Of a DNA stretch of 64,000 nucleotides, positions 16,053-53,527 are shown in pieces. The first letter of the stretch is position 1, and every line of letters begins with the position of its first letter. The DNA is from Patescibacteria group bacterium. GTDB taxonomy: Bacteria; Patescibacteriota; Microgenomatia; UBA10105; UBA927. The position numbers and the translations under genes are program-made. Location of the stretch: positions 213,318-277,317 of the forward strand of contig JAMCTH010000009.1 of NCBI GenBank assembly GCA_023379025.1, given 5' to 3'. The notes under the pieces were generated by a model. It had not been told where the DNA came from, ran no database searches, and worked only from the letters and a program-made list of their open reading frames with translations.

Positions 16053-19000
16053 ATGGAGCTGACAGGAATCCGGGAGACGGTATTTCTCGACCGTTACGCC
16101 CTTAAAGACGAAGCGGGCAAGCCGATGGAACAAACTCCCGAGGAAATGTGGCGGCGCGTGGCGCACGCCATATCGCTGGTTGAGCCGAAAACCAAGCAGG
16201 CGTATTGGGAGGAGCAGTTTTATAAAGCGATGGAGCAGTTCGTGTTCGTGCCCGGCGGGAGGATTTTGTCCGGAGCAGGCACGGGCTATAAGGTGACCTT
16301 TTATAACTGCTTCGTGATCCCTTCTCCCCACGATTCCCGCGGCGGAATTCTCAAAACGCTTGCGCAGATGGTAGAGATCATGTCCCGCGGCGGCGGCGTG
16401 GGGATCAACCTCTCGAGCCTCCGGGCCCGCGGCGCGCGCGTAAAGAAGGTCAACGGATTTTCGTCCGGACCGTGCAACTGGGCGGAACTGTTCAGTGTGG
16501 CAACCCGGGACATCATCCAGCAGGGCGGAAGCCGGCGCGGCGCGCTCATGCTCATGCTCTGGGACTGGCACCCCGATATTGAGGAATTCATAACGGTCAA
16601 ACAGGATTTGTCCCGGATAAACGGCGCGAACCTTTCCGTGTGCGTCTCGGATGCCTTCATGGAGGCAGTCAAGACCGACGGCGACTGGGAGCTCAAATTT
16701 CCCGATATCGACGATCCGGAGTATGACACCAAGTGGGACGGGTATCTCCCCAACTGGATTGCCCTCGGAAAAAAGGTTCACGTCTATAAAACCGTGAAAG
16801 CCCGGGCACTTTGGGATCTTATCGCAAAATCCGCCTGGCGGAGCGCCGAGCCCGGCGTCGTCTTCATGGAGCGCTATAACAAGTGGTTCAACAATTATTA
16901 CTGGGAATATGTCAACTGCGTCAATCCATGCGTGACAAAAGATACATTGGTTTCAACGACCCGGGGAATGAAAACTATCAAAGACTTGTATCGTGATGGG
17001 AAACCCTTTATGGTGCTTGTTGACGGAAAGAACTATCTCTCCTCACCAGTGTTTAGCACAGGTACCAAAAAGGTGTATCGGTTGGTAACGAAAGAAGGCT
17101 ACCAAATACGATTGACCCGAGATCATAAGGTATATACGCCTACGGGAAAAGTCGCTGCTGGCAGCCTGGTTAAGGGGAATAAGATTGTATTGGGCAAAGG
17201 TGGAGCATTTGGAGTGCGTGGGACAGTAGAAGAAGGCCAGGTTTTAGGTTGGTTAGTGGGCGACGGAAGCATGAAAGCTGATGTAGCGACGCTCTATTTT
17301 TATGAGCAGGAGAAGGAAGAGCTGGCTCCGGGATTTGCAGCAATGGTGGATGCTATGGTTGGCGGCGAACAAGTGGTGTCGCGCTCCTATAGCATTGGTC
17401 CTCAATACGTTCCACAGGAAAATAAGGCAATCGTAGAGTCGGTGCGTTTATGGCGGGTGGCCCAACAATACGGCATAACGCACGAAAATAAATATGTCGT
17501 TCCAAAAGCGGTGTTTCTCGGAAGTGAGGCAATGCAAAGAGGATATCTGCAGGGGTTGTTCTCAAGTGACGGTCATGTAGAGGGCAACCGTGAAAAAGGG
17601 GTTAGCGTTCGGTTGACATCCGTGAATAAAATGCTTTTGGTGGGAGTTCAACAGTTGTTACTCAATTTTGGGATTGTAAGCACGATATATGAAAATCGAA
17701 GGAGCGCGGGCAAACGTCTCCTGCCGGATGGTCGCGGTGGACACCGGGAATACGTTTGTCAGGCTTACCACGATTTAGTGATTTCAAAGACGGACCTACA
17801 TCTGTTCGGAAGTCTTATCGGATTTTTGCAGGTGAAGAAACAAGAGAAGCTGAGAACGCTTTTGGCTACATATGTACGCGGACCGTACCGTAAATCATTT
17901 ACGGCAACATTTGATCATTTGGATGAAGAGGGGAGAGAAGATGTTTTTGATATTACTGTCGCTTCCGTGCATAAGTTTGTTGCAAACGGACTTACCGTTT
18001 CAAATTGCGGAGAAGAGGGGCTTCCGAACTGGGGCGTATGCAACCTGTGCTCCATAAATCTTGCGGCCCTCGTCAATGAGGCCGGAGAAATGAATTATAA
18101 ACGGCTCGCGGAGGTCGCCAAAACCGGCGTGCGCTTCCAGGACGACGTTATTGACAGCGACTTTTACGTCTTCCCGGAAATCAAAAAGCGCCAGCTGGAA
18201 GGGGAGCGCCGCATCGGGCTCGGAACCATGGGACTGGGGGACGCGCTTATCAAGATGAGGCTCCGCTACGGCTCGCAGGAAAGCCTTTCGGTCATCGATA
18301 AAATCTACCGGACAATCCGGGACGCGGCCTATGAGGCCTCCGTCGATATTGCGGAAGAAAAAGGCGCATTTCCGGGCATGGATACGGACCAGCACCTCGA
18401 GGCGTATTTTATCAAGCAGCTTCCGGAAGAGATCCGCCGCCGCATGAAAAAACACGGGGTCAGGAATTCCGTCATTCTCCAGCAGGCGCCGACGGGGTCG
18501 ACATCGCTTCTGGCCGGAGTTTCGAGCGGGATCGAACCGGTGTACGAGTTTGAATTCATCCGGCGTGACCGGCTGGGCGAGCACCGGCTGCGCCACCCTC
18601 TCTACGATGCATGGGTCGACGGATATAAAAGGGCGCACGACGGACAGGAGCCGCCAAAGGAAGCGCGTCCGGATTATTTCGCGTCGGCAAACGATCTGAC
18701 GCCGGAGGACCATGTCTATGTACAGGCCGCGATCCAGAAATACGTCGATGCCTCAATCAGTAAAACCGTCAACGCGCCCAAGGCCCACTCTGTCGAGGAC
18801 GTGAAGCGGCTGTACACTCTGGCCTACGAACTCGGGTGTAAAGGCATCACCTACATGAGAGCCGAGAGCAGGCCCGGCGTCCTTACGCGCGTGGACGAGG
18901 ATACACACCGCGAGGGAAAGCCCGACGGAAACGCCAATGTCCAGGTAGGATCGCAGTATGTCCCGGAGGTCAAACCCCGTCCGATGGTCGTTCACGGCTC

Positions 19001-19625
19001 GACCTATCAGGTGGAGACGCCGGTCGGGCAGGCGTATGTCACGATCAATACCAACGGCGGCAACCAGCCGGTTGAACTCTTTGTCAATGTCGGAAAAGCG
19101 GGAAGCGATGTGACCGCGATGGCAGAGGCCATGGGCAGACTGATTTCCCTGATGCTGCGCATCGCCTCCCCCATACCTCCGATGGAGCGTGCCAAAAAGA
19201 TCGCGGCGGAGCTTATCGGCATCGGGGGGGCGCGAAGCCTCGGATTCGGGGAAAACCGGGTACGGAGCCTGCCGGACGCGGTTGCCAAGATTATCGACCG
19301 TCACTTCGGCTTCTTTGCCAAACATAAACTTGTCAATACCGATGCAATTGAGCCGGCACCCGCAGCGGGAAGTACGAACGGACACGGCGTGCCTGCCGCA
19401 GCCGCGGACGGCCGCCTGCCGCAAGAAGCCGGTACCGGAACCCATGAGGCAGGCGGACGAGAGGAGGGAAGCATCGCCGCACAGCAGCCGCTCTTCGGCA
19501 TGACCATAGCTCCTCCGGACAAACGCATGGTGACCGTCGACCTGTGCCCCAACTGCGGGGAGGGGAGTCTCGTGTTTGAGGAATCCTGCAAGAAGTGCTA
19601 CAGCTGCGGGTACTCGGAATGCTAG
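16053..19625 (+). CDS. nrdJ: class II (adenosylcobalamin-dependent) ribonucleotide reductase, intein-containing
   Basis: RNR class II catalytic region with C-terminal zinc ribbon CPNCGEGSLVFEESCKKCYSCG; interrupted by an in-frame intein (see separate feature). Confidence 0.85.
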   Translation: MELTGIRETVFLDRYALKDEAGKPMEQTPEEMWRRVAHAISLVEPKTKQAYWEEQFYKAMEQFVFVPGGRILSGAGTGYKVTFYNCFVIPSPHDSRGGILKTLAQMVEIMSRGGGVGINLSSLRARGARVKKVNGFSSGPCNWAELFSVATRDIIQQGGSRRGALMLMLWDWHPDIEEFITVKQDLSRINGANLSVCVSDAFMEAVKTDGDWELKFPDIDDPEYDTKWDGYLPNWIALGKKVHVYKTVKARALWDLIAKSAWRSAEPGVVFMERYNKWFNNYYWEYVNCVNPCVTKDTLVSTTRGMKTIKDLYRDGKPFMVLVDGKNYLSSPVFSTGTKKVYRLVTKEGYQIRLTRDHKVYTPTGKVAAGSLVKGNKIVLGKGGAFGVRGTVEEGQVLGWLVGDGSMKADVATLYFYEQEKEELAPGFAAMVDAMVGGEQVVSRSYSIGPQYVPQENKAIVESVRLWRVAQQYGITHENKYVVPKAVFLGSEAMQRGYLQGLFSSDGHVEGNREKGVSVRLTSVNKMLLVGVQQLLLNFGIVSTIYENRRSAGKRLLPDGRGGHREYVCQAYHDLVISKTDLHLFGSLIGFLQVKKQEKLRTLLATYVRGPYRKSFTATFDHLDEEGREDVFDITVASVHKFVANGLTVSNCGEEGLPNWGVCNLCSINLAALVNEAGEMNYKRLAEVAKTGVRFQDDVIDSDFYVFPEIKKRQLEGERRIGLGTMGLGDALIKMRLRYGSQESLSVIDKIYRTIRDAAYEASVDIAEEKGAFPGMDTDQHLEAYFIKQLPEEIRRRMKKHGVRNSVILQQAPTGSTSLLAGVSSGIEPVYEFEFIRRDRLGEHRLRHPLYDAWVDGYKRAHDGQEPPKEARPDYFASANDLTPEDHVYVQAAIQKYVDASISKTVNAPKAHSVEDVKRLYTLAYELGCKGITYMRAESRPGVLTRVDEDTHREGKPDGNANVQVGSQYVPEVKPRPMVVHGSTYQVETPVGQAYVTINTNGGNQPVELFVNVGKAGSDVTAMAEAMGRLISLMLRIASPIPPMERAKKIAAELIGIGGARSLGFGENRVRSLPDAVAKIIDRHFGFFAKHKLVNTDAIEPAPAAGSTNGHGVPAAAADGRLPQEAGTGTHEAGGREEGSIAAQQPLFGMTIAPPDKRMVTVDLCPNCGEGSLVFEESCKKCYSCGYSEC
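16929..18005 (+). mobile_element. intein with LAGLIDADG homing-endonuclease domain inside nrdJ
   Basis: Begins at Cys after ...YVNCVNP, ends ...HKFVANGLTVSN followed by extein Cys+1; two LAGLIDADG-type motifs (GWLVGDGSM, GYLQGLFSSDGHV); the 359-codon insert is visibly more AT-rich than the flanking extein. Confidence 0.75.
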
Positions 19626-19722: not shown

Positions 19723-20301
19723 ATGCCGATCTATACCCGTACCGGAGACAGCGGCGAGACATCCCTTTTCGGCGGCAAACGGGTCCTCAAGTGCCATGAA
19801 CTTGTGGATGCGTACGGTTCTCTGGACGAACTCAACAGCTGGGTAGGACTGGTTATTTCCGGCCCGCTCACGGGCGAACAGAAGCAGTTTTTTACGACGG
19901 TCCAGTCTGACCTTTTTCTCCTGGGGTCGGGTCTTGCGGGATGGCCGGCAGATCTTTCTCCGCTTGCAACCCGAATCCCCCGGATAGAAGGTGAAATAGA
20001 TGCGATGGAGGCAAAGCTTCCGGCGCTTGCCAACTTCATTCTTCCCGGCGGCTCGCCCTATGCCGCGTATGCCCATATTACGCGCAGCATCTGCCGCAGG
20101 GTGGAGCGGCAGGTGGTTGCCCTCCGGGGAAAGCAGGAGGTCGACCCCGGGATTGTCCCGTACCTCAACCGGTTGTCGGACTTGTTTTTTGTCCTGGCCA
20201 GGTCTATAAATAGTGACGCACACATCGGGGAAACGGTTTGGACCGGTATTCCCCGGAATATAAACAATAGACACGTAAAGAACAAGAGGAACTCCGTGTA
20301 A
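19723..20301 (+). CDS. PduO-type ATP:cob(I)alamin adenosyltransferase
   Basis: N-terminus MPIYTRTGDSGETSLFGGKRV is the hallmark of the PduO/MMAB family; sits directly after the B12-dependent nrdJ. Confidence 0.7.
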   Translation: MPIYTRTGDSGETSLFGGKRVLKCHELVDAYGSLDELNSWVGLVISGPLTGEQKQFFTTVQSDLFLLGSGLAGWPADLSPLATRIPRIEGEIDAMEAKLPALANFILPGGSPYAAYAHITRSICRRVERQVVALRGKQEVDPGIVPYLNRLSDLFFVLARSINSDAHIGETVWTGIPRNINNRHVKNKRNSV

Positions 20302-20472
20302 ATCGGAGGCTGTGCCGCAACGGTGACAACGAAAAGCCCGGAACTCTTCTTTACGCAATATCCCGAGCAGGAGCACGACGCAATAAGCGGATAGGACAAT
20401 AAACCATACACGGATAAGGAAGAGGATCCATGATTCCTTATGGGTTTATTGGATGATTGGCTTATGGAGCAC

Positions 20473-20498
20473 CCTCCCGACCGGGAGGGATTTTTTTG
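20473..20498 (+). terminator. rho-independent terminator
   Basis: CCCTCCCG-ac-CGGGAGGG hairpin followed by a T7 run, immediately before a GGAGGAG RBS and the ATG at 20511. Confidence 0.45.
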
Positions 20499-20510
20499 GA
20501 GGAGTATCCT

Positions 20511-22466
20511 ATGCCGGCAGATTGTGAATGCAAAAACGAAACCTGGAAAATTTCCTACGACGACGACGTTGCCACGGTTAAGGCGGTGTATCCGCACTGG
20601 ACGGATCACGAAGTGCGGCTGGAAGCGGCCCGGCTGTTCCGGCCGAAATATGCTTCTGACCGTTTATCGGTCGAGCATGAGTCGTCAGCTTTGGATGAAT
20701 ATGATACCGGTGTCACGTTTACCGTGGAGGGGGAACAACTGATTTACACAAGCGGCGGATACGAAGGCATGGGCATTGAGGATTTCAGTCTGCGCCAGCG
20801 GCGGCTTACGCCGGAGAAGTATTCGCTGCGGGATCACCAGACATCCCTTGCTCTTCAGGAAGCATTTGTGCGCGGCGCCCGCCGTGTCGTAACGTCCTAC
20901 TGGCGCGAAGGGGATGATGTCCGGGATATCGTTGAGATGCGCTATGATCCGGAAGCGCGGGAGGGGCATATTTTCATCAGGAATACCACCGGGGGCGGAC
21001 AGAATCATACGTATACTGAAATCCAATCCATTGCGCAGACACAGTTCCGCGACTTTCATGCCGTCCGTCCCACAGAAGGCATATTTCTCCTGACCGATAT
21101 CAGGATAGACGAGGGCGTTTTTCGGAGGACAGTTTCCAGAGTCCAGAATGCGGAATTGCCGGAGGACCGGTCTGCTGACGACAGATCCCGGATCCGTGAA
21201 GCGCCCCGGGCGCTGATCCGGAGCGAAAGCGCGCCGGAACCGTCCCAGAACGCGCGTTTCGTCCGGGCAGCGCATCCGGCAGTTTCTGAACTGCCCTACA
21301 CCATCGCAGCGCGTACGATACGCGAAACGCGGGAGACGGTACGGAGGGTGGCCGACCGGCTGGCGACAACGTCCGCCAACCGGAAGTCGGCCAAGGAACC
21401 GCATCCGGACTCCGGGGGGAAGAAACCTGCGCACGGGGTGCACGTCCGTGGGTATGGCGCGGAGTCCGGTGATGCGATCAAACGCCGGGGGTTCAGACGA
21501 CGGGAGCGCAGACATCCTGAGCAGGTAGGTGCCAGAGGGCGCAGACGACATGGTACACCCTTCCTGACCCGGGCGGAGACCACTTCCCTTCCTGTTTTCG
21601 GGCGACGGGGAGCCGGCAGAATGCAGCAGAAACCGGAAACCGAATTCTTCTTTGGTGCCGATTCCGCAAAGCGACGCATATTGCAGGAACGGAAATACCA
21701 GGAAGCGGGTACACCGCTCCGTGCGGCTGAAAGGACAAACCGTACGCATACAAAAGACCGGAAGGGGAGAACGCCGGCTGCTCCGGTTCGGAGAGGATCA
21801 GAACGGACTGCCCGGGGTAAACCGCAACGGGAGATACTCCGCCATACGTCCCGTGGTCCGGTGGCAGCGGAACGGGTGCTGAAACGCCGCAAGGAGCGGC
21901 CGGCCCGCAGGGTTCTGGCTCAGCTGCTGGCCCGTGCCGGATTTGGCAAAGAGCGTGCGGCACCCCGCGACGCAGCGGGGAAACGGGTAACAGAACGGAG
22001 GCATCAGGCGCCGTGTGAAGTAAACCATACGGCGGAGACCGGCGCGGGGCGGGAAAGATTCCCGGTCAGCGGCGGGGAGAAGGCCGCCGTGCTTAGCCGG
22101 TGTCTTCTCCTCTGGTTCCTTTGGGACGGACTGCGGACAAAAAATAAGCCTTCAAACCAGTTTTCCGGGCCGAATCGGGAGAAAACGGTTCGGCACGTTT
22201 CCGGTCGTACGCCGGGTCGTGGAAGCCCGGTATATTCACGGGAGGAGGGGATCCGCGTTGGTCAGGAGGAAGCATCACGCGGGCCCACATATCTTCTTTT
22301 GGCCATCATTTGGTATCTCGCGATGCTTCGGGAACAGGGGATACGCAACATCCCCGGTTCTTTTCACCCGGCGTCCGCCGCAAGGACACAGAACAAGCGG
22401 AGAAGACGCACCGGAAACAGACGGCACATTCCGCAGTGCGGCATAATCTTTCTGGCCCGTTCATGA
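20511..22466 (+). CDS. hypothetical protein: ~230-aa globular N-terminal domain plus ~400-aa Arg-rich low-complexity tail (coding status of the tail uncertain)
   Basis: Start trimmed to the ATG 6 nt after a strong RBS; N-terminal part has ordinary composition (VKAVYPHWTDHEVRLEAARLF...); the tail is very R/A/G/P-rich, all opposite-strand frames are also open, and a GGGGAT-N7-ATCCCC hairpin sits at 22337-22364 inside the ORF. Confidence 0.35.
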   Translation: MPADCECKNETWKISYDDDVATVKAVYPHWTDHEVRLEAARLFRPKYASDRLSVEHESSALDEYDTGVTFTVEGEQLIYTSGGYEGMGIEDFSLRQRRLTPEKYSLRDHQTSLALQEAFVRGARRVVTSYWREGDDVRDIVEMRYDPEAREGHIFIRNTTGGGQNHTYTEIQSIAQTQFRDFHAVRPTEGIFLLTDIRIDEGVFRRTVSRVQNAELPEDRSADDRSRIREAPRALIRSESAPEPSQNARFVRAAHPAVSELPYTIAARTIRETRETVRRVADRLATTSANRKSAKEPHPDSGGKKPAHGVHVRGYGAESGDAIKRRGFRRRERRHPEQVGARGRRRHGTPFLTRAETTSLPVFGRRGAGRMQQKPETEFFFGADSAKRRILQERKYQEAGTPLRAAERTNRTHTKDRKGRTPAAPVRRGSERTARGKPQREILRHTSRGPVAAERVLKRRKERPARRVLAQLLARAGFGKERAAPRDAAGKRVTERRHQAPCEVNHTAETGAGRERFPVSGGEKAAVLSRCLLLWFLWDGLRTKNKPSNQFSGPNREKTVRHVSGRTPGRGSPVYSREEGIRVGQEEASRGPTYLLLAIIWYLAMLREQGIRNIPGSFHPASAARTQNKRRRRTGNRRHIPQCGIIFLARS

Positions 22467-22478
22467 TATGATGACAGT

Positions 22479-22952
22479 ATGAATGATCTGCCCGTTCAGC
22501 CCGTCAATAGCGGATCCGGTGCAGGGGCAAACGTCCCCTCTCCTGTCCCGGGTTTAACGCCGGCTCCGATATCTGCCGCCGCGGGAAGTATCGGAACGAA
22601 GGAGCGGGAAAGCGGTTCGGCACGAAGCAGGGAATATCCGCAAATCCGGGAGATCGGGCGCGAAACGGAACTTCCTCCCGAGGTAGCTCGGGCAGGGGTC
22701 AGAATCCAGCCGACTCCCGTGCCCCTGCCGACAAAACTATCGCCGGTTCCGGTGCCGGCTCCCGCGGCACCAGCAGGTCAGCCCCCGGCCATCGCGCTTC
22801 CGTTGACGGACGATCAAATCGCACAGGGCCTGCATCAGAGTATTGTGAGCTCCTGGCGATGGCTTGCCGAATGGTGTCTCAGGAAACTAAAGCAAGTTCA
22901 TGTGACCATTAAATCCATGGGCGGAAAAACGGTTGAGGTAAAAATAAAATAG
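22479..22952 (+). CDS. Pro/Ala-rich hypothetical protein with C-terminal amphipathic segment
   Basis: 157-aa ORF, PVPxP repeats, C-terminal QGLHQSIVSSWRWLAEWCLRKL; directly upstream of the membrane ATPase. Confidence 0.4.
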   Translation: MNDLPVQPVNSGSGAGANVPSPVPGLTPAPISAAAGSIGTKERESGSARSREYPQIREIGRETELPPEVARAGVRIQPTPVPLPTKLSPVPVPAPAAPAGQPPAIALPLTDDQIAQGLHQSIVSSWRWLAEWCLRKLKQVHVTIKSMGGKTVEVKIK

Positions 22953-22974
22953 AACCGTCACCAACGCTATTTTT

Positions 22975-25326
22975 ATGCCGGATCAATTTAGTAATCTTAT
23001 TTTTCAATTGGAAGTTTTGGGAGTAAGCGTCATTGTTATGCTTATCTGTCTTGCGGGGCTTGCTGCACTTGGGTTTGCCGCGTTTCTTCTCTGGAAGTAT
23101 CGCGATCGGGAGGATCGGTCACTCGAGTATGTGCTTCTTCAGATCGCGGTACCAAGAGATAATGAAATAAAGATAGATGTCGCAGAACAATTATTTGCAA
23201 GCCTTTACAGTATCCACCACGGTGGCTTTTGGTCATTTTTGAAACCTCAGGAACACGCATCCTTTGAAATTGTGGCCAAACACGAGGATATTCGGTTTTA
23301 CGTTTCCGTTCACCGGAAACTTATGGACCTTGTGGAAAAACAAATACATGGGGCATATCCAGGGGCTGATATCCGTCAAGTTGACGAATACACCATTTTT
23401 ACGCAAACCGGCAAGGTTGCATTCGCCGCACTAAAATTGAAAAACGCCGATTTTTTTCCGCTCCGGGTATATCGGGATTTACCAACGGATCCGTTGTCAC
23501 TTTTAACGTCAGTCCTTGCAAAAATGGGGGAGGAAGAGGGAGCTGTCGTTCAGGTGCTTATTCAACCAGCGGAAGGCAAGTGGCGAAAATTCGGCCGCTC
23601 ATATATTTCCAAGACAAAGAAGGATGAGGCAAATCCGGAAAAAGCAAGCTTTAAAGTTGATCAAAAGACTCTCGAGGCAATTGAACAAAAGACGAGTAAA
23701 CCCGGATTTAATACCGTGGTCCGGCTTGTCGTATCGTCACCGACTCAGGAGGCTGCCAAGATGCACCTTGACAATTTGCTCTCAGCGTTCAGTCAGTTTT
23801 CTTCAGACAACAATAATTTCACCAAGGTAAAACATCCGATTAAAAAATTGTTTATGGTCGATTTTATCTATCGATACTTTCCGGTATGTAATCTGCCGTT
23901 TTTTAGCCAATACAGCGTCCTCAATAGCGATGAACTTGCGACCGTGTACCATCTTCCCAATAAATCCGTCGAAACGGCGCATATATTTTGGCTTAATGCA
24001 AAACGAGCACCGGCGCCTTCACAAATTCCGACTGCCGGTTTATATCTCGGTATTTCCCGTTATCGGGGAGTTGATCGGCCAATTTATGTCGGTGATGATG
24101 ACAGGAGACGGCATGTCTATATCATCGGGAAGACCGGTACAGGGAAATCACAACTTCTTGAAGAGATGGTGATGCAGGATATTAACGCCGGTCGCGGCGT
24201 TGCGGTTATCGATCCACACGGTGATCTCGTTGAAGGAATTCTCTCACGTGTGCCGGCAGCACGGGCCGAGGACGTCATCTATTTCGATCCGGGTGATTCC
24301 GAACGCCCGATGGGCCTCAATATGCTTGAAGCATCGACGGAACAGCAGAAACATTTTGTGGCGACATCGATCGTCGGACTCATGTACAAACTCTACGACC
24401 CCATGAAAACCGGCATCATCGGTCCCCGGTTCGAGCACGCCATCAGGAATGCCATGCTGACGGTCATGGAGGCAGTCGATCACGGGACATTTATCGAAGT
24501 TGTCCAGACACTCCAGCGGCCGGATTTTGTTCAGGAACTTCTTCCAAAAGTGCAGGATCCGATCGTACGCAGATATTGGACCGATCAGATCGCGCAAACC
24601 GCTGATTTCCATAAGTCGGAAGTCCTGGATTACATCGTCTCCAAGTTCGGGCGCTTTGTCACCAATAAACTCATGCGCAACATCATCGGGCAGTCCTATT
24701 CCTCGTTTGATTTCCGTAAGGTCATGGATGAAGGGAAAATCCTCCTGGTCAACCTTGCCAAGGGGAAACTCGGCGAGGAAAACAGCAATTTTCTGGGGCT
24801 TATCCTTGTGCCGCGGATTCTCGTTTCGGCGATGAGCCGGCAGGAAATGCCCGAGGAGAAGCGCCGCGATTTTTATCTGTATGTCGACGAGTTTCAGAAT
24901 TTCGCAACGCCGGATTTTGCCCAGATCCTTTCCGAAGCGCGCAAATACCGACTCAACCTTATCGTTGCCAACCAGTTTATCGGACAGATGGAGGAGGAGG
25001 TGAAAAATGCCGTATTCGGCAACGTCGGCTCGCTTATCTCCTTCCGTGTCGGCGTGACGGATGCCAATTACCTTCAGCACGAGTACCAGCCGACGTTTAA
25101 CGAGACGGACCTCATCAATATCGATAAATATAATGCCTATGTGAAAACTATCGTCCGCAACGAACCGGTGAAACCCTTCAGCATGGATCTGACGAAAGAC
25201 ATGGCCAAAGTCAACAGTCTCAAAAATCCCGAGATTGCTGCCGCCATCGTTCAGCTCTCGCGCCTCAAGTACGGAAGATCACGCGAGATCGTAGAAGCGG
25301 AGATCAGTCAGCGCGCCAGACTGTAA
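22975..25326 (+). CDS. membrane-anchored P-loop ATPase of the VirB4/VirD4 (conjugative transfer / DNA-translocase, AAA_10/TraG-D_C-like) superfamily
   Basis: N-terminal TM hairpin (LEVLGVSVIVMLICLAGLAALGFAAFLLW); Walker A YIIGKTGTGKSQ followed by VIDPHGD; Walker B context FYLYVDEFQNF; 783 aa. Confidence 0.6.
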   Translation: MPDQFSNLIFQLEVLGVSVIVMLICLAGLAALGFAAFLLWKYRDREDRSLEYVLLQIAVPRDNEIKIDVAEQLFASLYSIHHGGFWSFLKPQEHASFEIVAKHEDIRFYVSVHRKLMDLVEKQIHGAYPGADIRQVDEYTIFTQTGKVAFAALKLKNADFFPLRVYRDLPTDPLSLLTSVLAKMGEEEGAVVQVLIQPAEGKWRKFGRSYISKTKKDEANPEKASFKVDQKTLEAIEQKTSKPGFNTVVRLVVSSPTQEAAKMHLDNLLSAFSQFSSDNNNFTKVKHPIKKLFMVDFIYRYFPVCNLPFFSQYSVLNSDELATVYHLPNKSVETAHIFWLNAKRAPAPSQIPTAGLYLGISRYRGVDRPIYVGDDDRRRHVYIIGKTGTGKSQLLEEMVMQDINAGRGVAVIDPHGDLVEGILSRVPAARAEDVIYFDPGDSERPMGLNMLEASTEQQKHFVATSIVGLMYKLYDPMKTGIIGPRFEHAIRNAMLTVMEAVDHGTFIEVVQTLQRPDFVQELLPKVQDPIVRRYWTDQIAQTADFHKSEVLDYIVSKFGRFVTNKLMRNIIGQSYSSFDFRKVMDEGKILLVNLAKGKLGEENSNFLGLILVPRILVSAMSRQEMPEEKRRDFYLYVDEFQNFATPDFAQILSEARKYRLNLIVANQFIGQMEEEVKNAVFGNVGSLISFRVGVTDANYLQHEYQPTFNETDLINIDKYNAYVKTIVRNEPVKPFSMDLTKDMAKVNSLKNPEIAAAIVQLSRLKYGRSREIVEAEISQRARL

Positions 25327-25383
25327 CCACCTCTTTATTTCTGATTCCTTGTATTTTATTATTCGTGTATTCGCAGTATTTTC

Positions 25384-26745
25384 ATGGAAACGACCGTCTA
25401 CATCTTCAATATGTCCGAGGACGTCTGGCCGTTTATTGCAGCCATGGCGGATCCTGCCGCACGGGCGGCGGAGATTGACGAGAATGCGGATCTCGGTGAC
25501 CGCGAACTTTTTTCCCTGGCCGATGAACATAACATCCTCTTTATCGCTCCCAAACCGGTCAGCCCGGAGTTTTTCGACTATACCACCGATCTTCTCGGTA
25601 CAAAAAATGTCAGGGTGATCAGTCCGCGGGTGCACAGCGGGGTAATCTGCGAAGACATTCTCCGCGATGACCGTATCCTTTCTGCGCTTTCCGACGCGGC
25701 AAATTCGTCAAGGCGGCTTGCCCTGACAAGCTACACGACATCCATGCAGTTCCTTTCCCTTGCGCGGACGCTTCGGAAGCGGGGACTGACGGTCACGACG
25801 CCGGAGTCGCCTGAGTGGGATGACGCCTGGACCGTCAATTTCTACGGCAGTAAGTCCGGCATACGGCAGCTTGCCCAGCAAAGCAGGGCCGTCGAGCCGG
25901 ACTTTCTGATGGCGGACGGGCTTATCTGTTCCGGCATCACGGATGCCGCCAAAATCGCTGCCAAAAAATACATCAAGGAAAACGGTGTCGTCATCAAGAC
26001 CAATAAAGGCCATTCGGGTGCCGGCGTCCTCATTTTTCGCCCCGGCGATCTGCCGGGAGACTACAATACCTGCGAGCAGGAGATTTACCGCAAGCTTACG
26101 GAAGATCCGTACTGGGAGAAATTTCCGATCATTATCGAAGATTTTATCCAGATCACTCCGGCTATTGGCGGGGGATTTCCCAATGTCGAATTCAAGATTC
26201 AAAAAAATGGCCATATCGAGTTTCTTTACTATTGCGGCATGAGGATCACGAAGGACGGTGTATTCAGGGGAGTGGAAATACATAACGAAGTCGTTTCAGA
26301 CAGGACAGCGGCCCAGATGGTCGATACCGGGTTTTTTATCGCTGAACGGTATTCAGCGGCAGGATACCGGGGATACTTTGACGTGGATTTTGTCGCGGGC
26401 AGGAGCGGTACGCTCTACGTCACCGAATCGAACGTCCGGAAAACCGGCGGAACGCATGTCTACCACACGGCATTGCGCCTGTTCGGGCGCGATTTTATGT
26501 ACCTCACCTACATACTCTCCCATACGTCATACTCTCTGCCGTATGCGAGGCCGCCGGGCTTCCCGGATATGCTGGAGACGCTCCGGCCGGTGCTCTATGA
26601 CAGGGAAACCAAGGAAGGGCTGGTCGTGGTATCGGAAAACCTTCTCACCAGCCGGAATACGCTTGCCTACATCATTTTCGGGAAGAATAAAAAACGCGCC
26701 CTTGAGATAGAAGAAGAGATGGAAGGGTTGATCCGAAGCCGCTGA
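25384..26745 (+). CDS. ATP-grasp-fold ligase-like protein
   Basis: GVVIKTNKGHSGAGVLIF...IIEDFIQ...EFLYYCGMRITKDGVFRGVEIHNE resembles ATP-grasp central/C-terminal domains; assignment by motif only. Confidence 0.4.
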   Translation: METTVYIFNMSEDVWPFIAAMADPAARAAEIDENADLGDRELFSLADEHNILFIAPKPVSPEFFDYTTDLLGTKNVRVISPRVHSGVICEDILRDDRILSALSDAANSSRRLALTSYTTSMQFLSLARTLRKRGLTVTTPESPEWDDAWTVNFYGSKSGIRQLAQQSRAVEPDFLMADGLICSGITDAAKIAAKKYIKENGVVIKTNKGHSGAGVLIFRPGDLPGDYNTCEQEIYRKLTEDPYWEKFPIIIEDFIQITPAIGGGFPNVEFKIQKNGHIEFLYYCGMRITKDGVFRGVEIHNEVVSDRTAAQMVDTGFFIAERYSAAGYRGYFDVDFVAGRSGTLYVTESNVRKTGGTHVYHTALRLFGRDFMYLTYILSHTSYSLPYARPPGFPDMLETLRPVLYDRETKEGLVVVSENLLTSRNTLAYIIFGKNKKRALEIEEEMEGLIRSR

Positions 26746-26852: not shown

Positions 26853-26924
26853 GCGCCCGTAGCTCAGCGGCAGAGCGCGTGTCTTATAAACACGAGGCGC
26901 TTGGATCGTCACCAAGCGGGCGCA
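26853..26924 (+). tRNA. tRNA-Ile (anticodon TAT / UAU)
   Basis: Manual cloverleaf: acceptor GCGCCCG/CGGGCGC, D-arm GCTC-AGCGGCA-GAGC, anticodon stem CGTGT/ACACG with loop CTTATAA (U33, A37), T-arm CTTGG-ATCGTCA-CCAAG, discriminator A; T-loop is atypical (A54, U58). Confidence 0.55.
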
Positions 26925-26944
26925 CAGAATTCAGTTATTCAATT

Positions 26945-27526
26945 ATGGATATACCCCACGTCAAACAAACGGAAGAAGAGGTAGTGGTGTTGGTCGATGA
27001 AGACAATCACGAGATCGGTACGGCGCCGAAAGCGACAGTTCATGCCAATAATACGCCATTACACCGGGGTTTTTCATTATTTCTATTTAATTCCAAAGGT
27101 CAATTGTTATTGACCCGTCGCGCCCTAACAAAAAAGACCTTTCCCGGTGTCTGGACGAATACAGTATGCGGCCATCCCGGGCCGGGGGAGAGTGTAGAAG
27201 ATGCCGCAAGAAGAAGGCTATATGAGGAGTTGGGAGTTTCATTAGGGTTGAACCCTGGCGCCCAGGGTTCAACCCTGTCGCAGAACATAAGAGTTGTCAC
27301 CCCGTATTGCTATCGTTTTGCGGATCAAAACGGGATTGTAGAAAACGAGATCTGTCCTGTATTAGTGGCACATGCCGATGTTGAGCCTCATCCGAACAAA
27401 GCAGAAATTGAGGAATGGAAGTGGATAGACTGGCAGGAATTTCTTAACGAGGTTGAAACCCTGCCTCAGAAGTATTCTCCATGGAGTAGAGAAGAAACGA
27501 GGCTTCTTACAGCTCTTCCAGCTTGA
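26945..27526 (+). CDS. idi: isopentenyl-diphosphate delta-isomerase, type 1 (NUDIX fold)
   Basis: IDI-1 motifs FSLFLFNSKGQLLLTRRALTKKTFPGVWTNTVCGHP and YEELG; the track ORF starts upstream inside the tRNA and is trimmed to MDIPHV. Confidence 0.7.
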   Translation: MDIPHVKQTEEEVVVLVDEDNHEIGTAPKATVHANNTPLHRGFSLFLFNSKGQLLLTRRALTKKTFPGVWTNTVCGHPGPGESVEDAARRRLYEELGVSLGLNPGAQGSTLSQNIRVVTPYCYRFADQNGIVENEICPVLVAHADVEPHPNKAEIEEWKWIDWQEFLNEVETLPQKYSPWSREETRLLTALPA

Positions 27527-28370
27527 CGTTTTCGGCGGCTTTCCCTTTGACGAGTTCGAGATATTTTTCCGTTGTCGAGAGGCGTTTGTGACCGACGAGT
27601 TTAGAGAGCGTCGTGATAGGCGTGCCCGCCATGAGGTGATGGGCGATGAAGGTGTGCCGGAGGTCATTGACTTTGGCATCCTCAATGCCCGCGACGCGAA
27701 AATAGCGGTCAATAGCCGTGCGGATATTCCGGATCAGGAGCGGTTTGCCGGTTTTGGTAATAAACAGGGCTGACGACCCTTCTTTCCCCCGGATTTCCAG
27801 GTATTTACCAAGTGCTTCCTTGGCGGCCTTATTGAGGGGGACCATGCGTTCCGCATGACCCTCCTGGGCCGCAATATGGAGTTCCGTTTCCCGGACGTCT
27901 TCCGTCGTCAGATTGGCAAGCTCGCCGATACGCACTCCCGTCTGGAGAAAGAGCTCTACGATGGCATACGTCCTGACATCTCCGCGGCAGGCATCCCGAA
28001 GCGCCCGGTATTCGAGTTTGGAAAGGATGCGCGGCGGTTTCACTTCGTATTTGGGGTGTTCGATTTCGACTGCCGGATCCAGAGTGATAATACCGGAAGC
28101 CTTTAGGTATCGGAAAAAGGTTTTTATGGAATTGATCTTACGGGAGACGGACTTTGCCTTGTAATTGTCTGAGTTGAGCTTCTTGATGAACGCGTCAAGC
28201 TCTTCACGGCTTACGTCCCCGATGGTCTTTTTGCCCATGTTGGTGAGGAATGAGACCAATTGATCGATGTCTTTGCCGTATGCTACGATGGTAGCGCGGG
28301 CACGCCGGAGGCTCCCGAGGTATTCGGTAAACTGTCCGTGAGCAGCTTTGAGATCAAGTGCGGTAGCCAT
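27507..28370 (-). CDS. tyrosine recombinase (XerC/XerD-like integrase)
   Basis: N-terminal SAM-like core-binding domain, catalytic region with R...HxxR...Y (LRHTFIAHHLMAG...STTEKYLEL); 287 aa; lies between two convergent tRNA genes. Confidence 0.75.
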   Translation of the reverse strand: MATALDLKAAHGQFTEYLGSLRRARATIVAYGKDIDQLVSFLTNMGKKTIGDVSREELDAFIKKLNSDNYKAKSVSRKINSIKTFFRYLKASGIITLDPAVEIEHPKYEVKPPRILSKLEYRALRDACRGDVRTYAIVELFLQTGVRIGELANLTTEDVRETELHIAAQEGHAERMVPLNKAAKEALGKYLEIRGKEGSSALFITKTGKPLLIRNIRTAIDRYFRVAGIEDAKVNDLRHTFIAHHLMAGTPITTLSKLVGHKRLSTTEKYLELVKGKAAENVKLEEL

Positions 28371-28479: not shown

Positions 28480-28836
28480 ATGAATACAAAACGGCGCATC
28501 ATTCGGTTTTTTATCATTATCGTAAGCGTGGTTTCCGTCGTATCGTTGTCCGGCTCGATTGTCGATTTGTGGCAGAAGCGGTCGATCCTTCGTGAACGGG
28601 AATCAGAGGTCAGTACGCTGCAACATGAGCAGAAAAGCCTTAACAAACAGCTTCAGGATGCCCAAAGCCCGGAATATATCGAGCGCGAGGCACGAAACAG
28701 GCTCGGTCTCGCAAAACCGGGAGAAACCGTCGTTTTGCTGCCAAACGGGGGTACACAGGCGATGACCTCCCCTCAGCAGGGTAAGACCGGCGGGGCGAGT
28801 CCTCATTGGCGGGAGTGGTGGAAGCTTTTCTTTTAA
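28480..28836 (+). CDS. septum formation initiator FtsB/DivIC-like protein
   Basis: N-terminal TM helix, coiled coil, and signature IEREARNRLGLAKPGE. Confidence 0.6.
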   Translation: MNTKRRIIRFFIIIVSVVSVVSLSGSIVDLWQKRSILRERESEVSTLQHEQKSLNKQLQDAQSPEYIEREARNRLGLAKPGETVVLLPNGGTQAMTSPQQGKTGGASPHWREWWKLFF

Positions 28837-29872: not shown

Positions 29873-30673
29873 GTGAGCGATTCAGATTGTACTATTCTCC
29901 TTGGGGAACTCACCGAGGTTTTGGAAGTACAATTTGATTCTCCGCCTGATTACAGTTTATTCAAAGGAGAAAAATGTATCCCAAGACTCATGTTGAGCGA
30001 TGGCTGTTTATTCCGTTGTTCTTTTTGTACCGTCCCCACCACATTAACAGTCGTATCTCCTGGGAAAATAGAAGAACAGGTAGAGGAACTTAAGGTTCTT
30101 GATTTTAAGCTCATTTTTATCAATGATAAATCATTTGGACAAGCCAAAAATTGGCGAGCAATACGCGAAGTTTTCGAGCAAGTACATAGATACAATCAAG
30201 ATTTCTTAGGATTTATCGTCCAAACGCCTCCCAGTTTAGCTTTAAAGGATCGACTGATGGAAGCTGCGGTCGATTTAGGAGTAAAATATATGGAGTTTGG
30301 AGTAGAAACGGTCAGTGATGAACATCTTGCGTTGTTTAATAAGCCTTATCGTGTAAAACATTTAGATGAAGCATGTGAACGAGCACGGCGATTAGGACTC
30401 AAGATTATCCCAAATTTTATCTTAGGAATTCCTGGAGATGATTACAAGGCAACCATTGAATGGGTGACGAGAAATAGAGATATTATTCCTGTTGTCAATA
30501 TTAACTTTTTAGCGCTTCATTTTGGGAATATGCGAGGTAGACTGCCATGGCAGTCACAGACGTTAGGCGATCGAGATCAAAACGTGGCGAAAAAGTCATG
30601 GCTTTCCCAGGATGACCTAGCTCGCATGAGAGATGCCATGGAAACTATATATGCAATCACCTCAGGGAGCTAA
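29873..30673 (+). CDS. radical SAM domain protein, apparently N-terminally truncated (B12-binding radical SAM-like core without the B12 domain)
   Basis: CxxxCxxC motif CLFRCSFC at aa 45-52 preceded by the typical IPRLMLSDGC context; only ~30 aa upstream of the cluster instead of a cobalamin-binding domain; begins right after repeat R2. Confidence 0.5.
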   Translation: MSDSDCTILLGELTEVLEVQFDSPPDYSLFKGEKCIPRLMLSDGCLFRCSFCTVPTTLTVVSPGKIEEQVEELKVLDFKLIFINDKSFGQAKNWRAIREVFEQVHRYNQDFLGFIVQTPPSLALKDRLMEAAVDLGVKYMEFGVETVSDEHLALFNKPYRVKHLDEACERARRLGLKIIPNFILGIPGDDYKATIEWVTRNRDIIPVVNINFLALHFGNMRGRLPWQSQTLGDRDQNVAKKSWLSQDDLARMRDAMETIYAITSGS

Positions 30674-31343
30674 ACTATCATTTGATTTTGGATTTGTCAT
30701 TCCACTCCAGGCAGAAGCACGACCGTTATTGGATACACTCAAAAACAGAAAGCACAGGGATGGCTCGAGAACGATATACACGGGCCTATTCCACAATAAA
30801 AAGGTAAGTCTTATTATTTCCGGCTGTGGGAAGATCAAATCTGCATCCGCAACACAATATCTGATTGACGGCTATCCGGCAAGGACATATATCCATTATG
30901 GAACTGCAGGCGCTCTTTCCGACAAACTCAACATAGGCGATATTGTCATTGCGACACAGGTGATTGAGCACGATGTAGTGGAATTATTTCCAAAAAAGGT
31001 CCCTCCTCCTGTCCATAAAATATTCACGGAACGATTGAAAAGACAGTTGAAAGGTTTTCATGGCTCACCGCTTGTTTGGGGATCAATTCTATCGGGAGAT
31101 GAAGATATTATTACAGCGAAAAGGAAAAAGGAACTATATCAACAACACAAAGGCTTTTCAGTAGATTGCGAATCGGCAGGGTTTGCATTAACGTGCCAAT
31201 TAAATCATGCACAAGGGTATGTATTTCGTGGCATTAGCGATCATGCCTATGAACATACATCATCCGAATATGAAAAAAATCGAAAGGTAACGATTGATAA
31301 TATGGTAAAACTTTTTATCTATCTAGTCATCAGCCACCCCTAA
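30633..31343 (+). CDS. MTA/SAH nucleosidase (PNP_UDP_1 family) -like protein
   Basis: GCGKIKSASATQYLIDGY...YGTAGALSDKLNIGDIVIATQVIEHDV resembles MtnN/Pfs; 41-nt overlap with the preceding radical-SAM ORF; true start likely a few codons downstream. Confidence 0.55.
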   Translation: MPWKLYMQSPQGAKLSFDFGFVIPLQAEARPLLDTLKNRKHRDGSRTIYTGLFHNKKVSLIISGCGKIKSASATQYLIDGYPARTYIHYGTAGALSDKLNIGDIVIATQVIEHDVVELFPKKVPPPVHKIFTERLKRQLKGFHGSPLVWGSILSGDEDIITAKRKKELYQQHKGFSVDCESAGFALTCQLNHAQGYVFRGISDHAYEHTSSEYEKNRKVTIDNMVKLFIYLVISHP

Positions 31344-51775: not shown

Positions 51776-53527
51776 TTGGTCATGACTTTCTCGTCGCTTT
51801 CCCATTATTTTCAGAAACTTGAACAGACAGCCTCAAGAAACACCATGACCATGCTCCTCGCGGAGCTCTTTCATAAAGCAGGCAGGGACGAAATCGGGAA
51901 AATTTGTTTCCTCCTTCAGGGACGGGTTGTACCCCTCTATGACGCGCTTGAGTTTGGCGTTGCTGATAAGCTCGTGACACGCGCTATTGCGCAGGCATAT
52001 CAGGTTGCGGAATCGAAAGTAGCCGCTCAGATAAAGCATGTCGGAGACGCCGGAATAGCGGCCGAACAATGTTATCATGTTCTAGAACAGGATAACAGGA
52101 ATACCATCTCCGTAGGAGAGGTATTTCAGCAGCTGTATCAGACCGCCCGGGCGTCCGGTATCGGCTCTCAGGAGCAAAAGATCACGTTATTGGCTGGGCT
52201 CCTCCGCTCAATCGACGCGCTTTCTGCACGGTACATCGCACGGATTCCTCTGGATAAACTGCGCCTCGGGTTTTCGGATATGACCATTCTTGATGCGCTT
52301 TCGTGGATGCTTACGGGAGATAAATCGCTTCGGGTCCGTCTTGAAGAAGCCTATAATGTCCGGCCGGATATCGGGTATATCGCGGAATCGGTAAAAAAAG
52401 ACGGTATCCACGGACTCTCCCATGTCTCGGTACGCGTGGGCGCTCCTATTCTTGCCGCCCTTTGCCAGCGGCTTCCGCATGCGGATGAGATGATTAAGAA
52501 AATGGGCGAAGTTGCCGTTGAACCGAAATATGACGGCGTGCGGACGCAAATTCATGTTCAGAGGCAGGACAACGGCAGGCTCCGTGTACAGAGTTTTTCA
52601 AGAAATCTGGAAAATACAACGGCGATGTTCCCGGAACTTACCCATATTGGCGCTCAGATTCACGCCCGCGAGGTGATTCTGGACAGTGAAGCAGTGGGTG
52701 TGGATCCGAAAAGCGGCAAACTGATCCCGTTTCAGGAAACGATGACCAGAAAACGCAAGCACGGGATTGATGTGCAAAGCAGAAGCGTACCGATCCGATT
52801 TTTCGTTTTCGACATCCTCTATAAGGACGGGGAAGCATTGCTGGCAGCCCCTCTGTCCGAGCGACGGAAGATTCTTGAGGCTACCGTCGGAACGGGGAAT
52901 ATTCTGGTCGTTTCGCCGGAGATTGTGGCAGAGACGGCTGAAGAAATCAGAACGTATCACGATGAACAGCTGAAAAGGGGGCTTGAAGGGGCAGTCGTCA
53001 AAAAATGGAACAGTCCCTATGAGCCGGGGAGGCGGGGATTCAGTTGGGTGAAATTTAAGGAAGAGGAAGGACATACGGGGAAACTGACCGATACCATTGA
53101 TGCCGTGGTCATGGGGTACTATCGCGGAGAAGGAAAGAGGAGCGGATTTGGAATTGGGGCATTCCTGGTTGGCGTACGACAGAATGAATCCTTTGTAACG
53201 ATAACAAAAATTGGTACCGGCGTCTCGGATGCATTGTGGAAATTGTTGAGAGAACGGCTCAACGCAATTAAAACGAACCGTCAGCCAAAAGCATATAGCC
53301 AGGTCAATAAACTTTTTACCCCGGACGTCTGGGTTGAGCCGAACATTGTGGTTGAGATTGCAGGGGACGACCTGACGAAGTCCTCCAACCACGGGGCGGG
53401 GATCGCCGTCCGCTTCCCGCGCCTTGTCCGCATACGGACGGACAAAACGCCCCGCGAGGCGACCACGACCGGTGAACTCAATCAGATGTACCGCAAGCAG
53501 GGAGCCGGCGCCCGGCGTGGGGTATAA
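51776..53527 (+). CDS. ATP-dependent DNA ligase
   Basis: Adenylation motif I EPKYDGVRTQIHV, motif order and OB domain consistent with LigB/Lig(ATP) family. Confidence 0.75.
   Translation: MVMTFSSLSHYFQKLEQTASRNTMTMLLAELFHKAGRDEIGKICFLLQGRVVPLYDALEFGVADKLVTRAIAQAYQVAESKVAAQIKHVGDAGIAAEQCYHVLEQDNRNTISVGEVFQQLYQTARASGIGSQEQKITLLAGLLRSIDALSARYIARIPLDKLRLGFSDMTILDALSWMLTGDKSLRVRLEEAYNVRPDIGYIAESVKKDGIHGLSHVSVRVGAPILAALCQRLPHADEMIKKMGEVAVEPKYDGVRTQIHVQRQDNGRLRVQSFSRNLENTTAMFPELTHIGAQIHAREVILDSEAVGVDPKSGKLIPFQETMTRKRKHGIDVQSRSVPIRFFVFDILYKDGEALLAAPLSERRKILEATVGTGNILVVSPEIVAETAEEIRTYHDEQLKRGLEGAVVKKWNSPYEPGRRGFSWVKFKEEEGHTGKLTDTIDAVVMGYYRGEGKRSGFGIGAFLVGVRQNESFVTITKIGTGVSDALWKLLRERLNAIKTNRQPKAYSQVNKLFTPDVWVEPNIVVEIAGDDLTKSSNHGAGIAVRFPRLVRIRTDKTPREATTTGELNQMYRKQGAGARRGV

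Follow-up and report, generated by a model that had tools for sequence, protein, structure and literature searches.

A stretch of 64,000 nucleotides from a Patescibacteria group bacterium (assembly GCA_023379025.1, contig JAMCTH010000009.1, positions 213,318 to 277,317; hereafter the window, from whose first letter positions are counted) encodes a 783-residue ATPase that belongs to the VirB4/VirD4 clade of translocation ATPases. Together with a 157-residue protein encoded just upstream it forms a two-gene unit, the small partner being the sole consistent companion of the ATPase. The ATPase gene is a vertically inherited chromosomal core gene under strong constraint, a member of a Patescibacteria-wide family and not cargo. 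We tentatively regard the protein as an exapted coupling-type ATPase that serves the Patescibacteria type IV secretion system (T4SS) as an unlinked coupling ATPase or second motor, and give this reading a probability of roughly 0.45.

An initial annotation of the sequence had described three consecutive open reading frames (ORFs) as a Pro-rich protein, a VirB4/VirD4-type translocation ATPase and an ATP-grasp ligase. All three are present in the ORF listing with the limits given in Table 1, as are the ATPase motifs GKTGTGKS (residues 385–392), VIDPHGD (residues 411–417) and VDEFQNF (within residues 636–643). Among 22 diverse family members G385, G388, G390 and K391 of Walker A and D638 and E639 of Walker B are invariant. 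Three Pfam profiles of the type IV coupling protein (T4CP) kind match above their cut-offs, namely TrwB_AAD_bind (PF10412, 36.7 bits, cut-off 20.5, aligned to residues 377–674), T4SS-DNA_transf (PF02534, 28.8 bits, cut-off 20.1) and TraG-D_C (PF12696, 23.9 bits, cut-off 22); DUF87 (30.4 bits) also exceeds its curated cut-off. TrwB_AAD_bind, TraG-D_C and DUF87 had been anticipated, but the equally anticipated AAA_10 and CagE_TrbE_VirB gave no match in the Pfam scan. The same scan returned neither FtsK_SpoIIIE (PF01580) nor PF09397, and no gamma domain. In NCBIfam the equivalog cut-offs are missed (SXT_TraD 58 versus 366, CD1115 35.5 versus 250, TraD_Ftype 16 versus 521), and VirB4_CagE (TIGR00929) scores 20.9 bits, far under its cut-off of 643. 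In the PDB, TrwB and DotL match best in sequence. Judged by sequence, the motor is predicted to be of the VirD4/TrwB type with intact Walker A and B motifs.

The AlphaFold (AF2) model of the whole protein (predicted local distance difference test score, pLDDT, 87; predicted template modelling score, pTM, 0.76) consists of a helix (residues 4–49), an alpha/beta domain (52–350) and a P-loop domain (356–783), in which a helical block at residues 456–585 sits between Walker A and Walker B. When this model was compared with the PDB using Foldseek, TrwK/VirB4 ranked first over the whole length, and the C-terminal half matched TrwB (TMt 0.57–0.64) as well as Cagβ and HerA. These matches and the T4CP profiles bear out the VirB4/VirD4-type assignment of the initial annotation. 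The alpha/beta domain corresponds to Pfam DUF8128 (PF26449), which is precomputed for all homologues of the ATPase. Modelled separately (residues 46–352, pLDDT 88.6), it gave 14 best matches that were all TrwK/VirB4 chains (E 2e-8 to 9e-5, TMq ∼ 0.5), the next match (E 1e-3) being unrelated. The sequence profile of this domain found no match in the PDB, and the likeness to VirB4 is seen by fold comparison alone. The model indicates that the DUF8128 domain has the fold of the VirB4 N-terminal domain.

A transmembrane (TM) hairpin had been proposed for the N-terminus. We find instead one hydrophobic stretch of 33–35 residues, which AF2 builds as a single long helix, and the model makes a single-pass anchor more likely than a hairpin. 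As no further hydrophobic segment exists, both domains must lie in the cytoplasm, and the topology would be N-out/C-in. Of 83 family members, 79 have a hydrophobic segment at the N-terminus, and 17 have two segments; coupling proteins typically have two N-terminal TM helices.

From the first to the second half of the ATPase gene the G+C content at third codon positions (GC3) rises from 0.43 to 0.65, a larger shift than within any other of the 21 genes measured; in orthologues the two halves differ by merely 0.03–0.06. The shift behind the earlier suggestion of a mosaic gene is therefore real, but the suggestion itself does not hold. In comparison with 119 relatives the N-domain is 78% and the motor 85% identical, none of them has a discordant half, and because identity is uniform across the halves the GC3 shift is no evidence for a mosaic origin. 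The reading as a mosaic gene is accordingly rejected.

The small partner had been characterized as a Pro/Ala-rich protein with an amphipathic C-terminus, which its composition (Table 1) and its largest helical hydrophobic moment, at residues 122–139 (IVSSWRWLAEWCLRKLKQ), confirm. The body of the protein is acidic and probably disordered, and is followed by a basic amphipathic C-terminal helix that is the only well-conserved part of the family (consensus xS.RWLAEWc.r.lKq). The protein has no TM segment and matches neither VirB3 nor PrgI (Pfam, hydrophobicity). Orthologues of 40–52% identity lie directly upstream of the ATPase in four relatives (L002, L004, L005 and L006; loci are numbered as in our scan), and an iterated hidden Markov model (HMM) search placed the small partner in 16 entries, each 0–32 nt from the ATPase. 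More widely, a short co-directional ORF (≤ 320 residues, gap < 150 nt) precedes the ATPase in 59 of 80 loci and often overlaps its start. These ORFs fall into class-specific families (c3, c4, c9, c22 and c89), among which hhalign found nothing significant save a weak c3–c89 match (E 0.002). What the families have in common is an acidic body and basic C-terminal 30 residues, the mean net charge of the tails being +2.5 versus +0.8 in other ORFs of similar size (Mann–Whitney p about 7e-6, a value inflated by relatedness within families). In ABY1/Paceibacteria-type loci (L047–L058, L065 and L076) the ATPase is followed by a co-directional, conserved protein of ∼ 210 residues (c2) and then by DnaX (c8); the c2 protein may be a second class-specific partner.

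The ATPase has > 7,800 close homologues, the best 120 of which are 77–84% identical. Against representatives clustered at 50% identity it matched 23,641 clusters, 6,082 of them at E 1e-30 or better. A genome scan yielded 80 loci from at least 12 candidate phyla: Levy-, Woese-, Curtiss-, Roizman-, Shapiro- and Daviesbacteria, Dojkabacteria, WWE3, Saccharibacteria, and Magasanik-, Uhr-, Falkow-, Berkel-, Peregrini- and Staskawiczbacteria. The gene order in close relatives is class II ribonucleotide reductase (RNR), cobalamin adenosyltransferase, a variable ORF, the small ORF, ATPase, ATP-grasp protein, tRNA-Ile(TAT) and NUDIX. When the same genome pairs are compared, amino acid identity is 78–82% for the ATPase, 65–74% for the RNR, 58–63% for the ATP-grasp protein and 56–58% for the NUDIX protein, so that the ATPase is the most conserved gene of its neighbourhood.

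Several variant forms occur in the family. An old paralogue 'B' of ∼ 850–1,070 residues is sometimes found in tandem with the main copy (L042, 1128–6163; L059, 5923–13375). At one locus (L046, 324–2921) the main copy occurs as two ORFs, of 397 and 457 residues, owing either to a frameshift or to a genuine split like the haloarchaeal two-gene versions (H13–H22). In P0192 and P0194, and in some 24 cluster representatives of ∼ 1,440 residues, ∼ 1,000 residues of tetratricopeptide (TPR) repeats stand before the DUF8128 region or in its place, the motor being the same (∼ 50% identical). Other long forms (P0136, P0143 and P0152; 1,700–2,000 residues) carry large C-terminal extensions that have no known domain. 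Examined for Rosetta-stone fusions, the long members showed no nuclease, relaxase or helicase, but TPR repeats or unannotated extensions alone.

In the epibiont Candidatus Southlakia epibionticum ML1 the T4SS is essential and has no recognisable coupling protein (Wang et al., 2023; PMC10633639). Table S1 of that work lists SEML1_0142, a 'TraM recognition domain-containing protein' of 1,019 residues from a core, Patescibacteria-enriched family, as ES/ES/ES (ES, essential) at the three time points of transposon sequencing (Tn-seq), and SEML1_0141 (139 residues, encoded 12 nt upstream) as GD/ES/ES (GD, growth defect) with 0 insertions recovered. The paralogue SEML1_0293 (921 residues, PF10412 at residues 402–719) is non-essential. 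Neither SEML1_0141 nor SEML1_0142 is mentioned in the main text of that paper. The order around SEML1_0142 is IF3, YifB/ComM, two small ORFs, the ATPase, ORFs of 193 and 535 residues (both on the minus strand), GyrB and GyrA, and over ten genes this order is identical to that in a complete Saccharibacteria genome (L090) and to the other Saccharibacteria loci scanned. The L090 ATPase (P0404) contains DUF8128, and it aligns with the window protein over 818 columns, anchor included, at 40% identity. The Southlakia protein was not among the best 120 matches of a homologue search; because of the ten-gene synteny, on which the link rests, we count SEML1_0142 as a member of the DUF8128 family.

In a neighbour-joining tree of 228 family members the window protein falls in a multi-class clade that is grouped with the Saccharibacteria SEML1_0142-type clade (bootstrap 44%, versus 19% for the alternative). 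Paralogue B, to which the second copies in tandem pairs belong and which shares its Pfam pattern with SEML1_0293, lies outside (monophyly 89%). In BLAST the window protein scores 586 bits against an SEML1_0142-type member and 481 against paralogue B. We consider it probable that the window gene is orthologous to the essential SEML1_0142.

A published census counted 5,713 VirD4-type homologues in 2,918 of 3,035 Patescibacteria assemblies (96%) and VirB4 in 2,417 (80%) (Quinonero-Coronel et al., 2025; PMC12102498). Its authors cite an ML1 homologue as non-essential and hold exaptation possible; on Pfam pattern and length that homologue fits SEML1_0293. The window gene falls in their orphan-T4CP class, which they describe without reference to a VirB4-like N-domain, a small partner or synteny. 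A literature search for 'DUF8128' returned no papers, and the literature searched made no mention of a VirB4-like fold of this domain, a consistent small partner, synteny or conservation, a plasmid homologue in coupling position or a link to the essential pair. Orphan T4CP homologues in Patescibacteria are already published; the essential SEML1_0141/0142 pair is previously unremarked.

Relatives are also found outside Patescibacteria. By tblastn against plasmids the N-domain was detected in 39 records (Bacillus, Priestia and haloarchaea) and the whole protein in 344. The Bacillus subtilis plasmid NRS6116_2 (NZ_OX419581.1) encodes a 913-residue homologue (WP_144625398.1, 'DUF87 domain-containing protein') that is 24% identical over 698 residues (E 3e-44) and homologous over both N-domain and motor. 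Its gene lies directly upstream of one for a replication-relaxation protein, followed by TcpC, TcpD, TcpE and an AAA_10 (VirB4/TcpF-type) ATPase, and thus occupies the coupling-protein position of a monoderm conjugation locus. This gene context identifies the DUF8128-motor architecture as that of a type of coupling protein carried by mobile elements of monoderms and archaea. From these sequence comparisons we infer that the Patescibacteria genes are chromosomally fixed descendants or relatives of such coupling proteins.

A coupling role is favoured because the T4SS is essential and widespread, has no assigned coupling protein, and a plasmid homologue of the ATPase occupies that position. By analogy with its superfamily, the ATPase would form a ring that its N-terminal helix tethers to the membrane on the cytoplasmic side, and ATP hydrolysis would drive the handing of a macromolecule, protein or nucleic acid, to or from the unlinked, relaxase-less T4SS. 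The small partner could act as an adaptor, a regulator or a membrane tether, comparable with VirB3 for VirB4 or CagZ for Cagβ. With no coupling ATPase assigned to the essential Patescibacteria T4SS, the ATPase is a specific and testable candidate, and one 'orphan T4CP' is resolved into a distinct architecture in which a VirB4-like N-domain is predicted to precede a VirD4-like motor. Patescibacteria rely on host cells for nearly all building blocks. A bolder proposal, which we think distinctly unlikely, is that the ATPase and its partner are the missing essential energising and coupling unit of the T4SS and move host-derived macromolecules across the epibiont membrane, the family being an evolutionary intermediate between VirB4 and VirD4. 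Uptake of host RNA has been reported for a cultivated member of Patescibacteria (bioRxiv 10.64898/2026.06.21.733656).

Several observations weigh against a coupling role. No physical or genetic link between the ATPase and a T4SS was seen. Searches with single Tcp plasmid proteins (phmmer) found no VirB4, TcpC, TcpE or relaxase homologue within 6 kb at 84 loci, although this search is of low sensitivity, since TcpF did not match even the ATPase family. Conservation as high as that of the ATPase is unusual among coupling proteins. The small partners of different classes have no homology detectable by hhalign, and on the bootstrap values and bit scores given above, orthology to SEML1_0142 rather than to the dispensable SEML1_0293 is not robust. 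In the published census merely 148 of the 5,713 T4CP homologues are near virB4, and T4CP homologues are commoner than VirB4 (Quinonero-Coronel et al., 2025). Finally, SEML1_0142 is scored as essential from T0 onwards, a time point at which most T4SS genes are GD (Wang et al., 2023), which could mean a different or additional role.

Some of these observations would suit the main alternative, a T4SS-independent housekeeping translocase, in which the coupling scaffold has been exapted, with the small partner alone, for an essential cell-autonomous task at the membrane, for example the handling of nucleic acids or proteins in replication, division or envelope biogenesis. Such a protein need be neither linked to T4SS genes nor confined to the assemblies that have VirB4, and its very high conservation and the essentiality of SEML1_0142 at T0, which is shared with primase and RpoD, would be expected; exaptation is moreover held possible by Quinonero-Coronel et al. 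(2025). In several classes the ATPase also has replication or division genes as neighbours (Xer and DivIC, DnaX, GyrB and GyrA). These neighbours, however, vary by class and are mostly not co-oriented, which makes the synteny weak functional evidence; the long forms are fused to TPR repeats and not to nucleic-acid enzymes; and no specific substrate or pathway is indicated. Because a T4SS is present and essential, parsimony favours a retained coupling role, and we judge the housekeeping translocase rather unlikely.

Another reading would make the ATPase a DNA pump of the FtsK kind, which would help to resolve chromosome dimers at division by activating the neighbouring Xer recombinase. The ATPase lies within the FtsK-HerA superfamily, ECOD places SEML1_0142 in the FtsK motor domain e2iutB2 (Wang et al., 2023; Table S2), and downstream of the ATPase a minus-strand Xer recombinase (c1) is found in 19 loci and DivIC (c5) in 13. 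This association is nevertheless confined to Microgenomates and Dojkabacteria loci, and Xer is convergent with the ATPase and not co-transcribed. Southlakia has an essential, canonical FtsK of its own with alpha, beta and gamma domains (SEML1_0096), the annotation of TM7x includes ftsK, and the window ATPase matches neither FtsK_SpoIIIE nor the gamma domain. We therefore regard an FtsK-like function as very unlikely.

Table 1. Features of the ATPase unit and its neighbourhood in the window.
Feature	Coordinates	Strand	Basis or remark
Translocation ATPase, 783 residues, predicted membrane-anchored	22975..25326	+	ORF, Pfam, AF2 model, Foldseek
N-terminal hydrophobic helix, residues ∼ 8–42, followed by KYRDRED	22996..23100	+	Hydrophobicity, AF2
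N-terminal alpha/beta domain, residues ∼ 50–352, Pfam DUF8128 (PF26449), predicted VirB4/TrwK N-terminal domain fold	23122..24030	+	AF2, Foldseek
Predicted T4CP-type P-loop motor domain	24040..25323	+	TrwB_AAD_bind, Foldseek, PDB sequence matches
All-alpha insertion within motor, residues 456–585	24340–24729	+	AF2
Walker A GKTGTGKS, residues 385–392	24127..24150	+	Motif scan, family alignment
Walker B region YVDEFQNF, residues 636–643	24880..24903	+	Motif scan, family alignment
Small partner protein, 157 residues, P 14%, A 11%	22479..22952	+	ORF; 22-nt gap to ATPase
Amphipathic C-terminal helix of small partner, residues 122–139, IVSSWRWLAEWCLRKLKQ	22842..22895	+	Hydrophobic moment, family consensus
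PGM1/BesA-like ATP-grasp amide ligase (putative), 453 residues, neighbour outside the unit	25384..26745	+	Pfam, PDB matches
tRNA-Ile(TAT), syntenic landmark downstream of ATPase, not an att site	26853..26925	+	
Xer-type tyrosine recombinase	27507..28370	-	Pfam Phage_integrase and SAM_1
DivIC	28480–28836		Syntenic with recombinase
AdoCbl-II riboswitch aptamer	20275..20354	+	Rfam, 38.8 bits versus gathering score 36.5
Strong terminator hairpin and T7 run	20472..20499	+	Terminator scan
Arg-rich ORF, 651 residues from the probable start ATG 20511, neighbour outside the unit	20511..22466	+	ORF, Shine-Dalgarno

The initial annotation had grouped the Arg-rich ORF, the Pro-rich protein, the ATPase and the ATP-grasp protein into a four-gene translocation module, taken for the cargo of an integrated element with a tRNA and an integrase at its border. 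The genes do follow one another closely in one direction, both a tRNA and a tyrosine recombinase are found downstream of them, the GC3 shift falls inside the ATPase gene and the family has relatives on conjugative plasmids. The tRNA is, however, directly followed by a NUDIX gene, and the recombinase comes after this on the opposite strand. The tRNA also directly follows the ATPase in distant Microgenomates (L007, L015, L017 and L020). Since the tRNA and the recombinase recur beside the ATPase in relatives, they are fixed chromosomal neighbours, and DivIC shares in this synteny. No repeat of ≥ 13 nt of the tRNA sequence occurs elsewhere in the window, and the window contains no relaxase or mating-pair formation (MPF) genes, its remainder being housekeeping genes such as those for GuaA, TyrRS, FtsH and DNA ligase. 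An integrative or genomic island is all but ruled out by the synteny in relatives, the lack of an att-like repeat and the lack of relaxase and MPF genes, and with it the idea of integrated cargo is given up. The canonical VirB partners were correctly reported as missing, there being no MPF genes in the window or, as far as the phmmer searches reach, at the 84 loci.

The 453-residue protein is indeed ATP-grasp-like, with PreAtp-grasp and PGM1_C matches above cut-off (PF18604, 37.9 bits; PF18105, 24.7 bits). Its PDB matches are an 'ATP-grasp peptide ligase' (8ynd, E 1.8e-12, residues 46–444), PGM1 (1.5e-10) and BesA, and BesA is also its top, though weak, NCBIfam match. The family has 817 detectable members, mostly in Gottesmanbacteria. 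By iterated HMM the gene adjoins the ATPase only in ∼ 80%-identical Gottesmanbacteria relatives; L005 lacks it, and so does every locus at ≤ 66% identity. Of three further orthologues, one adjoins the ATPase and two are encoded elsewhere, beside flavodoxin and VanW and beside RNase P, YidC and FemAB (L087 and L088). Because its adjacency is restricted to close relatives, we interpret the ATP-grasp gene as a lineage-specific insertion between ATPase and tRNA and not as a partner.

The start of the Arg-rich ORF is probably ATG 20511, since a GGAGGAG Shine-Dalgarno sequence precedes it. The protein evolves rapidly; its N-domain is conserved, and its C-terminus carries a hydrophobic pair. The sequence suggests that the upstream AdoCbl-II riboswitch and terminator (Table 1) probably control this ORF and make it B12-regulated. 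The riboswitch is found in the same position in L006 (3401–3468), and in L004 genes for DUF4430 and DUF6580 proteins lie between the adenosyltransferase and a 664-residue counterpart of the Arg-rich protein. In L007 (3599–3671) and L017 (2008–2060) the riboswitch precedes DUF6580 and the adenosyltransferase. The Arg-rich ORF thus appears to go with the upstream B12/RNR cluster and not with the ATPase, and it may be an uncharacterised B12-acquisition protein. The class II, B12-dependent RNR of this cluster (16053–19625, 1,190 residues) carries an intein (Intein_splicing, residues 306–651) with a LAGLIDADG homing-endonuclease domain (LAGLIDADG_3, 495–590), whereas its L004 orthologue (824 residues) has no intein.

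Across the 80 loci the four-gene arrangement is therefore not conserved, and what recurs is the small ORF and the ATPase alone. Of the proposed module the Pro-rich companion stands, but the ATP-grasp protein, being lineage-specific, and the Arg-rich ORF, tied to the riboswitch-controlled B12 cluster, do not. The two outcomes that had been named as telling against it are split in the same way: a placement of the ATPase in the FtsK family was not seen in the Pfam scan, but co-conservation of the ATP-grasp and Arg-rich genes does fail elsewhere. As the ATPase also lacks any half-specific identity pattern, cargo of a mobile element is hardly credible. A false lead is thereby removed, in that the ATP-grasp gene, the Arg-rich ORF, the tRNA and the recombinase form no island or module with the ATPase. 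An anti-phage defence ATPase of the MADS mad8 or HerA type, suggested by the best PADLOC match (mad8, E 2e-18) and weak HerA matches, is a negligible prospect, as the mad8 match covers the shared P-loop domain alone, the window has no other MADS or defence genes nearby, and a family that is universally present, strictly syntenic and essential behaves in the opposite way to a defence island.

Other features of the window deserve brief mention. Two patches of low GC3 (29873–31343 and 45255–47189; 0.33–0.35 versus 0.55–0.70 elsewhere in the window) hold a radical-SAM gene, a PNP_UDP_1 phosphorylase and a HEAT-repeat/cytidylyltransferase gene, and are better candidates for recent acquisition than the ATPase block. 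The anticodon TAT (UAU) of the tRNA-Ile is conserved in relatives (L002, 11832–11904; L004, 11869–11941). AUA is usually read in bacteria by a lysidine-modified CAU tRNA, and this lineage may decode AUA without TilS. An ATP-dependent DNA ligase of archaeal/eukaryotic type, with N, M and C domains, is encoded at 51776–53527.

Of the neighbours, the 453-residue protein has the Pre-ATP-grasp and PGM1_C domains in common with the PGM1/BesA ligases (PDB 3wvq, 8ynd and 8yi6). Unlike these, its family is mainly restricted to Gottesmanbacteria, and the putative ligase has no surrounding biosynthetic cluster.

The ATPase itself shares with VirD4/TrwB/TraD (PDB 1e9r, TrwB; 8dol, Cagβ) a motor of the FtsK-HerA superfamily, the all-alpha insertion, an N-terminal anchor and the TraG-D_C region. 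It differs from them in the extra VirB4-like domain of ∼ 300 residues predicted between anchor and motor, in having one hydrophobic helix, and in lying on the chromosome, where it is syntenic and highly conserved and has neither relaxase nor MPF genes close by. On the B. subtilis Tcp-type plasmid, conjugation genes follow the homologue, whereas none of that context is found at the Patescibacteria gene. With VirB4/TrwK (PDB 7o42, 7o43 and 8rtd) the ATPase has in common the plan of an N-terminal alpha/beta domain followed by a TrwB-like ATPase, and a small protein encoded just upstream, which in the case of VirB4 is VirB3. In contrast to VirB4, its motor scores as a T4CP, it has its own TM helix and it is not encoded in an MPF cluster; the genuine VirB4 genes of Patescibacteria are separate and stand in the T4SS cluster (Quinonero-Coronel et al., 2025; SEML1_0008).

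SEML1_0141 and SEML1_0142 of Ca. Southlakia epibionticum ML1 differ from the window pair in several respects. The SEML1_0142 type is longer (∼ 1,020–1,050 residues), with a C-terminal extension, and has lost the T4CP Pfam matches, the Southlakia small partner has no detectable homology to that of the window, and the neighbours are GyrB and GyrA instead of the tRNA and Xer. The arrangement of a small ORF followed by the ATPase is nonetheless the same in both.

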